Assembly (NCBI GenBank): GCA_963762565.1
Contig: CAVXLD010000001.1
Location: 128,001-192,000 of the forward strand
Direction: 5' to 3'
Length of the DNA stretch: 64,000 nt
DNA from: an uncultured Verrucomicrobiae bacterium
Lineage (GTDB): Bacteria; Verrucomicrobiota; Verrucomicrobiia; Chthoniobacterales; JAFAMB01
This document shows, in pieces, positions 5,815-64,000 of this stretch. How positions within the stretch are numbered: the first letter of the stretch is position 1; each line of letters begins with the position of its first letter. The notes below the pieces were generated by a model. The model had not been told where the DNA came from and ran no database searches. It was given only the letters and a program-made list of their open reading frames with translations. Made by a program: the position numbers and the translations under genes.

Positions 5815-5936
5815 GGGAGGGCGCGCGTCCCCGCGCGCCGCGAGGACGTGGCACAACCTAAAGGTGTATGTTGGCCCCCGATTACAACACATGCTCGGCT
5901 TCGGCGACAACGGATCGCGGGGACGCGATCCCTCCC
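5815..5936. repeat. REP-like inverted pair, family A (GGGAGGG-hairpin arms)
   Basis: GGGAGGGCGCGCGTCCCCGCGCGCCGCGA at 5815-5843 and GGATCGCGGGGACGCGATCCCTCCC at 5912-5936. The same arms recur at 27560-27677, 31711-31889, 45881-45905 and 48914-49097. Confidence 0.85.
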
Positions 5937-17886: not shown

Positions 17887-17956
17887 TCCGCCTTCGTCCC
17901 TTTCTGCGGGACTTCCGCCGTCGCTAAAGCTATGGCGGACAAGTCAGCGCGACAAG
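17887..17956. repeat. 30-nt hairpin unit (family B) nested in a related unit
   Basis: TCCGCCGTCGCTAAAGCTATGGCGGACAAG (17914-17943) inside TCCGCCTTCGTCCC..GGGACT|TCAGCGCGACAAG. Confidence 0.8.
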
Positions 17957-18470: not shown

Positions 18471-18714
18471 GAAAGGAGCTAGGAGCCAGAATCTAGGATC
18501 TAGGAGAAAACGTGTAGGCGGGTTGGCGTATCGACGTTTCGGCGTGCGCTGGACGCCGCGATCGAATGGGATCCGCCTTCGCCAAGCCTTCGGCGCGACG
18601 GGCTTTATGGGACCTGTAGGACCTACCTGATTGACGCATACCTCCGGTGAGTCTAATCGGCTTTGCCACACCCACACGCGCGTCTCTCCTGGCTCCTGGA
18701 TTCTGGCTCCTTTC
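18471..18714. repeat. Nested inverted STR element containing a family B unit
   Basis: GGAGCTA-type arms at both ends; TCCGCCTTCGCCAAGCCTTCGGCGCGACGGG at 18572-18602. Confidence 0.8.
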
Positions 18715-18891
18715 TTAGGGCGTCCGGCCGATCCAAGCAGGGATCTGAACAGGGATACTCGAACCGGAAACATAATCCTGGGAATAGCTGGCCGGAGCAT
18801 ACTCACGGTGACCGGCGATATAGACGAAAGCGAGGAGGTTCAGCGTTCCTACAGTGATGAAAGCGATCAGTGGCAAACGGAATTTTTTCAT
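18715..18891 (-). CDS. Small predicted membrane/secreted protein (58 aa)
   Basis: Hand translation MKKFRLPLIAFITVGTLNLLAFVYIAGHREYAPASYSQDYVSGSSIPVQIPAWIGRTP; basic N-terminus plus hydrophobic helix; fills a gap between repeats. Confidence 0.55.
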   Translation of the reverse strand: MKKFRLPLIAFITVGTLNLLAFVYIAGHREYAPASYSQDYVSGSSIPVQIPAWIGRTP

Positions 18892-27559: not shown

Positions 27560-27677
27560 GGGAGGGATCGCGTCCTCGCGATCCTTCTTTAGCGAAGCCC
27601 GCGACAGAGCAGATCACGCGTTTAGCCAGGTTCACCAGGCAGACCTGGTCGCGGCGCGCGGGGACGCGCGCCCTCCC
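27560..27677. repeat. REP-like inverted pair, family A
   Basis: GGGAGGGATCGCGTCCTCGCGATCC ... TCGCGGCGCGCGGGGACGCGCGCCCTCCC. Confidence 0.85.
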
Positions 27678-31710: not shown

Positions 31711-31889
31711 CGGAAGGGATCGGATCCTCGCGATCAGGAAGGGATCGGATCCTCGCGATCAGTTTGGTGTCGGACCGAGGATGTGATGTAATCTCGGACG
31801 AAATTACGCCTTGGGCTTTGGCATGTCCCCGCGGCGCGCGGGGATCCTCCGTCGCTAAAGCTATGGCGGACAGGCAGCGCGCTCTCCCC
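31711..31889. repeat. Family A pair with duplicated left arm and a family B insertion in the right arm
   Basis: ggaagggatcggatcctcgcgatc x2; right arm split by TCCTCCGTCGCTAAAGCTATGGCGGACAGG (31845-31874). Confidence 0.82.
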
Positions 31890-42432: not shown

Positions 42433-42472
42433 GTCGGGCGGCTGCCCATGCGCGTCAAGATAAGGAGTCGAC

Positions 42473-43732
42473 TCATAAAGCTGCGAGTCTTTGAAAGAGG
42501 TTGGTTCGATCGGAACGGGAGTCATAACGGCAAAAGTAAAAGAAATGTTGAAGCCAGTCTTGGTGAGGGGAAGCGGCGATTAAGGGAAGCAAACGACTCA
42601 AATAGGCAGCGATTTTGAGTGGACTGAGAGCGTTTAGTTCAACGCCCCAAGGCTGAAGGGCAAAAGCGGTCTGCAGCAAGGCAATGGCTAGTAGTTTTGC
42701 TAAGAGTTGAATCTGGACCCAGAGTGGATTGCGAGCGGGAAGCTGACCGAGCTGAAAATGAGATTTCCAACTTTTGAAAAGCACTTCGATTTGCCACCGA
42801 GTGCTATAGACTTCCCAGAGTTGCTGGGCACTGAGTTGTTCAGCGGTGACGTTGGTCAATAGGATGGTCCAACCTAAAAGTTTGCGATAGCGTTTGGTGA
42901 GCTTTAGCGAGCGATCTTTTTTGGCGTTGGCCCGAGCGTGCCGCCGACGCTGAGCGGCTAAGGCTGGGGGCAAGCGCAAAGCCACTAAACGCACCGGGAG
43001 TCGCTCTTCGGCGCCTAACAGCAGCTCGACACTGAGTTGACAATGGTTTTGGACTAAAGCCAAAAGCTCGACCGGCTTTTGAGTTTTGGGATCAAAGAAA
43101 ACAAAATCGCTGCGGCAGCGACTCAAGAAATAGGCTCCGGCCTGGATGATCTGGCGCCAAACTTTAAAGACGGCGTAGCCCAAGTCGCGAATGACCAAGT
43201 CTCCGGGTTGGAGCAAACTTAAAATCAAGCTCGAGGCCTTCTGATCGTTGTCGGTCAGGGCACCGAGTTGGAAATGAAGCCAGCTTTGAGAACGCAGTTC
43301 AAAGACGGCTTGGATTTTGACGCTGGCAAGCTTGGCTTGGTGTTGATTACCACAAGCCGGAAAACAACTTGCCAGTCTGGGATGGAGGGCTAAAGCGGTG
43401 CTGTCCTGGAGCAAAACTCGGCCGAAAGGTTCCAACAGCCGACTGGGGCAAGAGCGGTGCATAAAATTGGCTAACAAGCTGGCCAAACAAAGTTGTAGAA
43501 AACCTAGCAGCCTTCTGTCGCAGCGCTGATGCAGAGCTTGTTTAGAGAACAGTCCGGCTTGCAAGGCACTTAATTGGGCCGCCCAGCTTTGGAAAGAATA
43601 GGCTGGGTAGCACAGACTCAAGAGGATGGATTGAAGGAATGCTTCCAGAGAGAGTTTTTTAGGGCGACGTAAGACAAAACCAGAGCTTCTAGCCAAGGTT
43701 TGCAGAGGCAAATAGGAAAAGCGTTGCAGCAT
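42473..43732 (-). CDS. IS4-family DDE transposase
   Basis: LLQDST, IRDLGY and the Y-2-R-3-E-6-K signature YSTRWQIEVLFKSWK. Confidence 0.92.
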   Translation of the reverse strand: MLQRFSYLPLQTLARSSGFVLRRPKKLSLEAFLQSILLSLCYPAYSFQSWAAQLSALQAGLFSKQALHQRCDRRLLGFLQLCLASLLANFMHRSCPSRLLEPFGRVLLQDSTALALHPRLASCFPACGNQHQAKLASVKIQAVFELRSQSWLHFQLGALTDNDQKASSLILSLLQPGDLVIRDLGYAVFKVWRQIIQAGAYFLSRCRSDFVFFDPKTQKPVELLALVQNHCQLSVELLLGAEERLPVRLVALRLPPALAAQRRRHARANAKKDRSLKLTKRYRKLLGWTILLTNVTAEQLSAQQLWEVYSTRWQIEVLFKSWKSHFQLGQLPARNPLWVQIQLLAKLLAIALLQTAFALQPWGVELNALSPLKIAAYLSRLLPLIAASPHQDWLQHFFYFCRYDSRSDRTNLFQRLAAL

Positions 43733-43820
43733 ATGATATATAGTATAAAAACTATATATTTGCACCGCTTTTTTTCGCTCTCTTTCTTGCTCTTTAGAGC
43801 GTTAGACTTCTTTCCTAACC

Positions 43821-44012
43821 ATGGGCTATCCGGTCAAACTCCAAAAAGTCGATCGTCCCACCAATCGCAGCTTCTATGTCAATTTGCCTGCCGCTCTGGC
43901 CGACGCTATTGAACTGGACAAAGGAGAAGAATTAGAGTGGTTCGTCGAAGACAAAAACACCCTCATCCTGCGTCGAAAGAAACCGACTAAGCCCCTCAAA
44001 CTCAAGCACTAA
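43821..44012 (+). CDS. AbrB/MazE/SpoVT-like small DNA-binding protein
   Basis: VKLQKV...SFYVNLPAALADAIELDKGEELEW..ED..TLILR swapped-hairpin pattern. Confidence 0.75.
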   Translation: MGYPVKLQKVDRPTNRSFYVNLPAALADAIELDKGEELEWFVEDKNTLILRRKKPTKPLKLKH

Positions 44013-44081
44013 CTCCTTATCTTGACGCCTATGGGCAGCCGCCAGGCGGCTGCCTGGCGGCTGCCGGACGAGCTCGGGTGT

Positions 44082-48913: not shown

Positions 48914-49097
48914 GGGAGGGATCGCGTCCTCGCGATCCGTTTGTTAACGAAGCCGAGGACGTGTTGTGATCTTGGACAAAAATACACCTTTGGGTTGTGC
49001 CACGTCGTCGCGGCGCACGGGGATCCGACGTCGCCCCCGTGGTGATAAAATCGATTAGATGCAACCGGCTATGTCGGACAGGCGGCGCGCCCTCCCC
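48914..49097. repeat. Family A pair with family B insertion that itself carries an insert
   Basis: Right arm split after GGGGA by TCCGACGTCGCC[31 nt]GGCTATGTCGGACAGG (49024-49082). Confidence 0.8.
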
Positions 49098-51918: not shown

Positions 51919-51940
51919 CTCGAAGATTTTTGGAAGAAAA

Positions 51941-52032
51941 TGGGTTGGGTGGGACTCGAACCCACAACCAACCCCGAACTCCGAAATTCTTCGCGAGCAG
52001 GAGCTTTCGGGGCTGCTCTACCATTGAGCTAC
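51941..52032 (-). repeat. tRNA-Lys-derived repeat (D arm to 3' end) with anticodon loop replaced by a nested hairpin
   Basis: Identical to the tRNA at 51941-51972 and 52012-52032. 51973-52011 reads CCCGAA[CTCCGAAATTCTTCGCGAGCAGG]AGCTTTCGGG instead of GCCTTAAAAGGGC. Confidence 0.9.
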
Positions 52033-52283
52033 ATCTCGGGACCGCTCTTGAGTAGGTAGATCGCGATCTGCGGATTCTTTTTCGCTTTGAGTTGGCGCTC
52101 AAGCAGTCTCGCCGACCGAATGTCCGGCATTTGCTTGGTAGCGACGAGCTCTAAGGGCAGACCAAACCGTCGGGTAGAATGGACCTTGCCACGTTGGTGT
52201 TCGCCGAAGCGCCGATCGAGATTTTCGGTCGACCCGATATAGTGCCCGCCACAAGACCCACGAATGATATAGACCCACGCCAT
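52029..52283 (-). CDS. Stand-alone GIY-YIG nuclease (84 aa)
   Basis: MAWVYII...HYIGST.NL.RR..EH..G...ST......ELV......ARLLERQLK; stop TAG lies within the tRNA-derived repeat. Confidence 0.88.
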   Translation of the reverse strand: MAWVYIIRGSCGGHYIGSTENLDRRFGEHQRGKVHSTRRFGLPLELVATKQMPDIRSARLLERQLKAKKNPQIAIYLLKSGPEM

Positions 52284-52295
52284 CCTAACCAAAAA

Positions 52296-52367
52296 TGGGT
52301 TGGGTGGGACTCGAACCCACAACCAACGCCTTAAAAGGGCGCTGCTCTACCATTGAGCTACCAACCC
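52296..52367 (-). tRNA. tRNA-Lys (TTT)
   Basis: GGGTTGGTAGCTCAATGGTAGAGCAGCGCCCTTTTAAGGCGTTGGTTGTGGGTTCGAGTCCCACCCAACCCA folds as a cloverleaf; no encoded CCA. Confidence 0.95.
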
Positions 52368-52407
52368 AAAAAATCTGCATTCCATTCTTCCCCTTGGCAT
52401 CCCTAAG

Positions 52408-52461
52408 CCACAACCAACCCCGAAAGCTTTCGGGGCTGCTCTACCATTGAGCTACCAACCC
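52408..52461 (-). repeat. tRNA-Lys-derived repeat (5' end to T-stem) with anticodon loop replaced by a palindrome
   Basis: Minus strand GGGTTGGTAGCTCAATGGTAGAGCAGC-CCCGAAAGCTTTCGGG-GTTGGTTGTGG, then divergence. Confidence 0.9.
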
Positions 52462-53116: not shown

Positions 53117-53494
53117 GGGCTACACATAGCCTACCCCTCTAAAAATCGCGAACAAATCGGAAACAGTTCGTCGTTCGAGATTCACTGTTCGCAGCCTACA
53201 CCGGGATCGCTCCACCCACGTGCTTCCCATCAACACAGACCGTCTAACAACCGCTTGACGGCCCGCCGCGTTTCACCATTGCCCCTATAACACCGCTCCA
53301 TTGCTCCACTGCTGCAACACTCCGTTTGCCACCTCACGTAGCAACTTCTGCAAAAAACGTTGGGCAGGCGATACGCCTGCCCAACGTGGTTATGTTACTG
53401 TTATGAAATTACGGTAGAGATTTCGCTTCTCAGGTTGTGGGGGCTCTTCAGCCTTCGCCAAGGCTACGGCGGACAAGGCGACGCGAACTCAGAG

Positions 53495-53968: not shown

Positions 53969-54586
53969 ATGAAAAGATTCCGCTTGACTGCTTTCGTTGT
54001 GGCTAGCGCGCTGTCGCTAACAACCGCCAATGCGATGCCCGATTTGGGCCGCGAAACCGGGAAGTTTATCCGGCAAGAACAACCCGCACCAAAGGGAGTA
54101 CGGACTTTTGAGCCGGCTAAATTACCGGTAGCAAAAGGAAGCGATAATACAAAGGTGTCGATGGCAGTACCGCTACATCCTGGCGACGGGAATCTAGCGA
54201 TGGGAGTACCGCTTCGTCCCGGCAACGGCATTCTAGCGATGGGAGTACCGCTTCGTCCCGGCAACGGCATTCTAGCGATGGGAGTACCGCTTCGTCCCGG
54301 CAACGGCATTCTAGCGATGGGAGTACCGCTTCGTCCCGGCAACGGCATTCTAGCGATGGGAGTACCGCTTCGTCCCGGCAACGGCATTCTAGCGATGGGA
54401 GTACCGCTTCATCCCGGCAACGGCATTCTAGCGATGGGAGTACCGCTTCATCCCAGCAATGGCATTCTAGCGATGGGAGTACCGCTTCATCCCAGCAATG
54501 GCATTCTAGCGATGGGAGTACCGCTTCGTCCCGGCAACGGCATTCTAGCGATGGGAATACCGCTACGCCCACCGACGGCATTCTAG
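53969..54586 (+). CDS. Secreted protein with tandem 13-aa units (MGVPLRPGNGILA)
   Basis: Signal peptide MKRFRLTAFVVASALSLTTANA, ~42-aa linker, 10 full units plus a partial 11th. May extend to 54651 if a 1-nt deletion is corrected. Confidence 0.7.
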   Translation: MKRFRLTAFVVASALSLTTANAMPDLGRETGKFIRQEQPAPKGVRTFEPAKLPVAKGSDNTKVSMAVPLHPGDGNLAMGVPLRPGNGILAMGVPLRPGNGILAMGVPLRPGNGILAMGVPLRPGNGILAMGVPLRPGNGILAMGVPLHPGNGILAMGVPLHPSNGILAMGVPLHPSNGILAMGVPLRPGNGILAMGIPLRPPTAF

Positions 54587-54609
54587 CGATGGGAGGTTCG
54601 CTGCGTCCC
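54161..54609 (+). repeat. 39-bp tandem repeat array (~11.5 units)
   Basis: atgggagtaccgcttcgtcccggcaacggcattctagcg repeated head to tail without spacers. Confidence 0.95.
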
Positions 54610-54673
54610 GAGGAATTCCAGCTTGAGGCGGGCTTCGTCTTTCCAGCCTGATCTGATCCCTACCGGGATCGGG

Positions 54674-63874: not shown

Positions 63875-63928
63875 AAGAAACCTCCTCAACGACCGGCCCA
63901 CCTTCGTTGCGCTATCGCGCGACGGCTA

Positions 63929-64000
63929 TGCACGGTGAGGGAATCGAACCCCCGACCTACTGGGTGTAAACCAGTCGCTCTACCGCTAAGCTAACCGTGC
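63929..64000 (-). tRNA. tRNA-Val (TAC)
   Basis: GCACGGTTAGCTTAGCGGTAGAGCGACTGGTTTACACCCAGTAGGTCGGGGGTTCGATTCCCTCACCGTGCA. Confidence 0.93.

Follow-up and report, generated by a model that had tools for sequence, protein, structure and literature searches.

The locus at 17887–17956 of the window, as we call the 64,000-nt stretch of an uncultured Verrucomicrobiae genome that was analysed, raises the question of how a hairpin of about 30 nt came to lie inside an older relative of itself and to recur at other places in the same DNA, and of what moved it there. A sequence-only reading had proposed a mobile unit, with GGGA in front of three of its copies, and with the small GIY-YIG gene behind a tRNA in the window or a RAYT as the candidate enzyme. 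We examined the unit in its host genome (G000; 6.1 Mb, 93.7% complete), which contains the window, and used five same-genus genomes (G001–G005) for orthologous sites. The answer that we favour, with a probability of roughly 60%, is that this 30-base insertion, which contains no gene, represents a dispersed copy of the hairpin recognised by a small Slx1-like GIY-YIG nuclease that would act in trans. In any case the unit is real, and it has a directly testable candidate enzyme.

Every unit listed by that reading was found at its coordinates, and the two uninterrupted family A arms that it named are also real (Table 1). The 30-mer matches at 17914 and 31845, with no chance match in 100 shuffles, and a two-arm profile recovers five of the six listed window units (17914, 18572, 31845, 49024 and 53448), the degenerate one at 63897 falling below its score. 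The descriptions had to be amended on several points. The unit in the GGGAC repeats is present, but as a 31-nt subtype with a bulged base that ends in GACGGG. Units do fill family A arms, but a filled arm is not exactly an empty arm plus a unit, since there is one extra base at +2; the composite of arm and unit at 31845 has been amplified as one whole. Finally, the degenerate copy beside tRNA-Val does exist, and because all 5 same-genus genomes have it, it is a relic fixed long ago rather than a recent insertion. At 53448, different unit-like variants are found in two relatives, and most of the unit is missing in one. Repeats of other kinds also occur in this DNA: an IS at 42437–44043 of the window, with a DDE transposase and 32-nt inverted repeats, has near-identical copies elsewhere, some inside family A arms; a 39-nt tandem repeat lies in a 260-aa ORF without Pfam match (window 54081–54665); and a CRISPR-like array with a 36-nt repeat is located at G000:C2:93331-96846.

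Table 1. Coordinates of units, empty target arms and the GIY-YIG gene in the window
Feature	Position	Strand	Remark
Type A 30-nt unit, nested in older relative	17914..17943	+	Fold favoured on minus strand
Outer 40-nt type B relative	17887..17956	+	Interrupted after ACT by the 30-mer
Type B 31-nt unit, bulged base in right stem	18572..18602	+	Inside GGGAC nonamer repeats
Type A unit in REP-like family A arm, one extra base at +2	31845..31874	+	
Long-loop form, 59 nt, in family A arm	49024..49082	+	Usual arms, variable 33-nt loop
Type A unit at old site	53448..53477	+	
Degenerate unit	63897..63926	+	Right stem overlaps tRNA-Val 3' end (tRNA-Val 63929-64000, minus)
Empty family A arm (target without unit)	27649..27677	+	
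Empty family A arm (target without unit)	5815..5841	-	
84-aa GIY-YIG behind tRNA-Lys, candidate of the sequence-only reading	52032..52283	-	Different clade

The whole G000 genome was scanned with a two-arm model with a free loop, adopted because a first profile had drifted to type B and lost most of type A. This model returned 503 non-redundant copies including variants, and at that score 617 raw matches were obtained versus 8 in the reversed genome. The copies include 40 of type A (30 nt), 234 of type B (29–32 nt, with the bulged base) and about 130 long-loop copies of 57–63 nt, besides smaller classes; in a 49-nt class, about 34 of 39 are mis-parsed right halves of ~96-nt copies whose loop contains another repeat. 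Long loops are nearly all different (130 distinct among 137), and in one 31-copy family the arms are 95% identical and the loops 53%. We rejected long loops as captured guides, as a genome-wide match search gave decayed relatives only, and as local copies, the longest common word being 7.45 versus 7.55, with no local similarity. As separate observations, the loops of the ~130 long-loop copies (such as 49024–49082 of the window) are A-rich and tightly held at 31–37 nt between near-identical arms; the spacers of the host's REP doublets vary as much (41% identity); and some ~96-nt copies carry a whole REP-like hairpin of another family in the loop (for example G000 C5:330562 and C1:24470).

The unit is a discrete insertion of 29–31 nt with fixed ends and co-varying stems. 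Within repeat families filled and empty forms coexist: one family A context has 40 filled versus 115 empty copies, and a second has 5 versus 98, with an exact junction. The same picture came from three gene sites compared with the five same-genus genomes. At C5:274539 a clean 30-nt gap separates the filled site from G001 and from 4 of 5 paralogous matches, the fifth carrying an insert of its own; at C1:1124314 the gap is equally clean and the site is empty in 3 of 3; and C5:384914 is empty in G004 and filled in G002, while in G003 and G005 it is shorter by 30 in a loose alignment. At 17887–17956 itself three layers could be distinguished, with no element in G001 and G004, the outer element only in G002 and G003, and outer plus inner in G000. 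The uninterrupted outer copy was found in tandem in contigs of two soil runs (X7 and X10); among the read-run contigs no joint skipping the 30-mer at 17914 was detected, and the joints near 18571 are likely due to paralogous repeats. In run X5 one contig passes over 242 bases (window 18566–18807), among them the type B unit and the nonamer array; it may represent either a larger composite's empty allele or a paralogous repeat. The alignment of filled and empty sites, in the host genome and its relatives, thus bears out the claim of a mobile-type insert with fixed boundaries and no target duplication.

Target duplications of 2–5 nt were at chance level only among 177 matches. The absence of target-site duplication, a 4-nt unpaired tail and the clean 30-nt gaps in orthologues set the unit apart from classical MITEs, which have terminal inverted repeats and duplicate their target. 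In 171 distinct contexts, the base before the unit is A or T in 120 and the base after it is C or T in 125, so that the general target is a weak (A/T)|(C/T) bias and not GGGA; the position of some copies after GGGA reflects the amplification of one composite repeat. Units also nest within one another at a recurrent point, after (G/C/A)CT, and form head-to-tail arrays with spacers of 0–2 nt (15 junctions). When 172 filled sites with five or more empty twins were compared, 17 were precise, 122 had one extra base at or near +2 and 33 were of other types; by context, the extra base was seen in 25, a precise junction in 11 and others in 21. The extra base follows the first flank base and is typical of older copies, and most of these scars (85 of 122) are not independent events, as they lie in long-loop composites that were multiplied jointly. 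A second REP-like arm occurs with and without one extra base in 138 versus 132 contexts. As this arm shows both forms about equally, single-base insertions in hairpin repeats are common in the lineage.

That the stems covary, as had been claimed, was confirmed on 86 distinct sequences: 4 of 9 pairs change on both sides, a score reached by 0 of 500 shuffles, and slid controls collapse. Covariation backs an outer stem of 6 bp and an inner one of 3 bp, and the structure rests on it since single-copy folding energies are modest (at 17914 one strand gives a z of −2.7 and the other −2.2, with six other folded stretches between −1.6 and +0.8). Outer-pair mismatches on the plus strand are C.A in 17 cases and T.G in 4, C.A being a wobble pair on the minus strand, and the mean fold energy is −6.4 kcal/mol for the minus strand versus −5.4 kcal/mol for the plus strand. 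On both grounds the working form is likely that of the minus strand, with a 5'-CYTG tag, a 6-bp stem, a 3x3 GWA/GAA internal loop, a 2–3-bp GC inner stem and a free loop.

The unit is not confined to this genome. The type A pattern is present in 15 of 40 relatives and in 60 of 220 genomes of the phylum, the reversed pattern in none of either set. A species-wide scan gave at least 120 stretches with an exact match, and among the 80 with titles at least 13 phyla are named; at least 54 stretches among the scan matches listed are viral contigs. In-frame copies, in both orientations, were found in ValRS, alanine racemase, Fpg, TatD, NusA, RecF-like and RlmN-like proteins, among others. No autonomous copy with a gene between unit arms was found, nor any gene-sized cargo; an apparent 1.65-kb split at C10:117440 resulted from wrongly pairing two repeats that flank an ordinary gene, and none of the matches listed was a multi-copy IS element with unit-like ends. 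Likewise, no recurring mobility gene was detected in a neighbour scan that covered 140 of 285 proteins beside dispersed copies, all 140 of them from non-viral genome loci; any mover would therefore act in trans, in agreement with the earlier idea of a minimal non-autonomous element.

Neither of the enzymes originally named is a good candidate. The window GIY-YIG falls in another clade than the unit-linked branch described below, no unit lies in the 1.6–3.2 kb loci around the 11 matches nearest to it in relatives, and close relatives exist in only 4 of 220 phylum genomes. Its locus (window 51940–52460) is flanked by tRNA-half repeats with a hairpin in place of the anticodon arm, and occurs in tandem copies in G004 (L002). 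Other small GIY-YIG clades lie behind tRNA-Met, tRNA-Asn and tRNA-Val, each with its own tRNA-half repeats, and in L196 (G004:C207:3150-6365) and L226 a UPF0213-like GIY-YIG is flanked by a different hairpin repeat family, which suggests that each small GIY-YIG clade has its own repeat. As for the RAYT, none of 12 Y1_Tnp matches in G000 has a unit within 900 bp, and the co-occurrence check across the 220 genomes was negative (18/60 versus 35/160, p 0.22).

A small tRNA-linked GIY-YIG of another kind fares much better, so that the original suggestion was right in kind and wrong as to the gene. The partner is very probably one clade of 80-aa Slx1-like GIY-YIG putative nucleases encoded behind tRNA or tmRNA genes. 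In G000, tmRNA and several clustered unit variants precede a weak GIY-YIG match at C12:58348. Small GIY-YIGs with terminal FERYLKSGSGRAF-like motifs were found in ten relatives after tRNA-Gly, tRNA-Tyr or tmRNA, and most of these genes are preceded by an inverted pair of unit-type hairpins. Among 82 loci fetched by protein similarity alone, a unit lies within 350 bp upstream of the clade gene in 66 and downstream copies occur in only 7; as controls, 4 units were found in 84.5 kb further out and 4 in reversed sequences. A tRNA or tmRNA precedes the clade gene in 46 of the 82, and 19 of 30 additional phylum loci are also unit-linked. In unit-rich genomes, units also lie upstream of unrelated GIY-YIG-domain genes (L189, L195, L198 and L220).

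Co-occurrence was measured in the 220 phylum genomes, all at least 90% complete, of which 72 contain the clade. Of the 60 unit-positive genomes 39 have it, against 33 of the 160 unit-negative ones, kin not being independent, and it is present in 22 of 25 genomes with three or more unit copies; the family-stratified odds ratio is 8.3 (161 genomes, 14 families). Conversely, 21 of the 60 unit-positive genomes have no clade member and 33 clade-positive genomes have no exact 30-mer, and no clade member was found in three unit-rich relatives (G015, G017 and G021; 19–35 copies, 69–87% complete).

The clade protein has 80 aa and matches PF01541, some members also PF10544, and an alignment of 50 members shows conserved Tyr, Arg, His and Glu positions of catalytic type; the predicted structure (pLDDT 92.8) matches Slx1/HIGLE/UPF0213. 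Homologues are numerous (7,427 at E≤1e-25 among 7,999 scored), and a tree groups the 24 members sampled on a single branch (95), separate from the GIY-YIGs of the NTS-linked and window types. Hairpin subtypes A and B cluster on the protein tree, with 8 changes versus 16.8 when shuffled, on 53 rows of a poorly resolved tree in which kin are not independent.

The home cassette consists, in order, of the tRNA 3' end, hairpin 1, a spacer, hairpin 2 on the other strand and the 80-aa gene. The left stem of hairpin 1 is often borrowed from the tRNA end, and cassettes sometimes form tandem arrays; in three of these (L323, L326 and L333) the last codons of the gene run into the left arm of the next repeat. 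G000 has no intact cognate gene but three broken pieces, two of them behind tmRNA and a partial tRNA-Gly, with unit-type hairpins. Scattered copies share the arms of the cassettes and even cassette-specific loops: in G000 the tmRNA cassette has its loop class in common with 11 further places, and the tRNA-Gly cassette with 4, one of them 17887. By our own count, the outer element at this locus is identical in 32 of 36 nt to the hairpin before one broken cognate GIY-YIG (G000:C2:9366-9401). Because the hairpin before this piece (C2:9415) matches 17887 and the tmRNA-cassette loop recurs at 11 places, the dispersed copies appear to derive from cassette hairpins. Some copies in G000 are chimeric, with the left stem of hairpin 1 and the right stem of hairpin 2.

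From these comparisons we consider it probable that the clade enzyme causes the spread of the unit; for the chemistry our confidence is low, and the steps that follow are a sketch. The enzyme would bind the hairpin on single-stranded DNA and nick one or two bases 5' of the CYTG tag, much as SsnA cuts next to its own hairpin. Host repair would then set a copy into a nick at another place, either through nick-primed template switching or through ligation of a released oligonucleotide. The extra A or T at +2 of older copies could be a scar of re-cutting and end-joining, which would fit since the extra base lies at about the predicted cut place and Ku is present in G000. A length of 30 with open frames would allow copies to survive in genes as 10-residue loops. 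Single-stranded DNA fits better than one transcript because hairpins 1 and 2 are opposite in orientation. The CARG tail that marks the mobile form is missing from hairpin 2 of the cassettes, so that recombination between the two hairpins must be assumed as a further step. To our knowledge GIY-YIG enzymes are hydrolytic nucleases for which neither a covalent intermediate nor strand transfer is known, so the insertion step would be without precedent. A wider proposal, which we hold tentatively, is that an 80-residue GIY-YIG at tRNA ends, together with host repair, constitutes the transposition machinery of a 30-base element, and that each small GIY-YIG clade has its own micro-element. If true, this would be a class of mobile DNA without a transposase fold or target duplication, among the smallest cargoes known, which spreads over phyla and phages and writes 10-residue loops into essential proteins.

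Part of the evidence could be read differently. A tyrosine transposase (a RAYT or IS200-type HUH enzyme, or a Rep_trans-like element) might move the unit in trans by single-strand peel-and-paste, the GIY-YIG being a passenger that shares the hairpin. HUH chemistry fits landing without duplication, a tetranucleotide beside the hairpin and head-to-tail arrays; the landings in REP-like arms agree with it too, and the 12 Y1_Tnp matches could supply the enzyme. We regard this as unlikely, given that, apart from the missing linkage and co-occurrence reported above, 4 of the 5 best of these matches carry different palindromes of their own, no gene-sized cargo lies between unit arms, Y1_Tnp is absent from the 140 of 285 neighbour proteins scanned and PF02486 was not found in G000. 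About equally unlikely is that no dedicated mobiliser exists, the cassette being only the source of hairpins that template switching or illegitimate recombination at host forks spreads and conversion keeps uniform, with the nuclease merely restricting or removing them. Exact ends at unrelated, non-homologous sites in at least 13 phyla and phages, and the recurrent nesting point inside the unit, speak against such a host-only process and call for an enzyme that defines the ends; it would nevertheless account for copies that persist in genomes where the enzyme is broken or missing, for the chimeric copies and for empty sites whose folds are slightly more stable than those of shuffled pairs of flanks (−3.99 versus −3.65 kcal/mol).

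A route through RNA, in which tRNA read-through gives a structured transcript and a reverse transcriptase then writes it into nicks, seems very improbable. The position of the cassette downstream of tRNA or tmRNA on a shared strand (46/82) would suit it, the wobble pairs fit an RNA fold as well and hairpin 2 folds on the transcribed strand, but hairpin 1, which is also dispersed, folds on the untranscribed one. Insertions show neither a target duplication nor a tail, and in 4 cassette loci no Rfam family except tRNA and tmRNA reached the cut-off.

How repeats of 20–40 bases (REPs without a RAYT, RPEs, SDRs, NTS) enter new sites is a long-open question, and we know of no mover for most of them. 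Here a single 30-mer comes with filled and empty sites, a folding strand, a tag and a specific 80-aa candidate enzyme that has thousands of homologues, and because all of these are defined the question becomes testable with one small protein and a few oligonucleotides. The unit also accounts for the 10-residue inserts that recur in housekeeping proteins of uncultured bacteria. Moreover, the unit and its clade may offer a new specificity class of likely single-strand nucleases.

No published description of the unit was found in the open-access literature searched, and it was compared with known systems. Elements of the IS200/IS605 and IS91/Helitron types have no terminal inverted repeats and no target duplication, and carry a subterminal hairpin with a tetranucleotide. 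The unit resembles them in its hairpin and tetranucleotide, in having no terminal inverted repeats and in landing without target duplication, and differs in having neither a linked HUH gene nor an autonomous copy between arms. Rickettsia palindromic elements are longer than the 30-nt unit. According to the accessible part of PMC3733652, they are palindromic inserts translated in frame in working proteins, confined to one genus, whereas the unit adds 10 residues and crosses phyla. Nostocaceae small dispersed repeats, compared by description only, involve a very small module precisely inserted at a fixed point of another motif (via PMC4390886, as far as accessible), and in cyanobacteria SDR5 targets HIP1 (PMC4390886). 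The unit is likewise of the ~20–30-nt class, with precise insertion and empty sites; by the same description it differs in its weak target bias, its presence in many phyla and its candidate enzyme.

REPs and REPINs with their RAYT are hairpins of 20–40 nt tagged GTAG or CGTC, some in frame in genes and some inside other palindromes (Di Nocera et al. 2013, PMC3733652, accessible part). The unit is also a tagged hairpin with in-frame gene copies and insertion in other palindromes. However, its tag is CYTG, neither GTAG nor CGTC, and the terms 'CTTG' and 'GIY' do not occur in the accessible part of PMC3733652; moreover, no RAYT is flanked by the unit (0/12 Y1_Tnp within 900 bp), and REP-like arms are its targets. 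The unit is neither a RAYT-REP nor a classical MITE.

The closest parallel is provided by the Ssn nucleases, single-domain GIY-YIG enzymes found beside NTS/SRM hairpins; SsnA cuts 3 nt 5' of its motif on one strand only and tolerates loop extensions, and its authors raise a mobile-element origin for the hairpin repeat (Chenal et al. 2025, PMC11893778, accessible part). As far as that part goes, both systems pair a single-domain GIY-YIG of ~80–95 aa with an oriented hairpin of ~30 nt that bears a 5' tetranucleotide, occurs in hundreds of scattered copies and has a loop tolerant of extension. The clade protein is indeed a small single-domain GIY-YIG with an Slx1-like predicted fold, and its gene is linked to its own hairpin repeat (upstream in 66/82). 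On the other hand, six NTS-adjacent GIY-YIGs, used as a stand-in for cd10448, form a branch apart from the unit-linked clade; the SRM consensus matches 0 of 503 units on either strand; and the unit has a CYTG tag and a stem with a 3x3 internal loop. Its cassette is lodged at tRNA 3' ends, the word 'tRNA' being absent from the accessible part of PMC11893778, its precise insertion is seen in orthologous empty sites, and its copies enter genes in frame. As the clade is another one and no unit matches the SRM consensus, the unit and its GIY-YIG form a pair that appears to work like Ssn/NTS but is not a member of that system.
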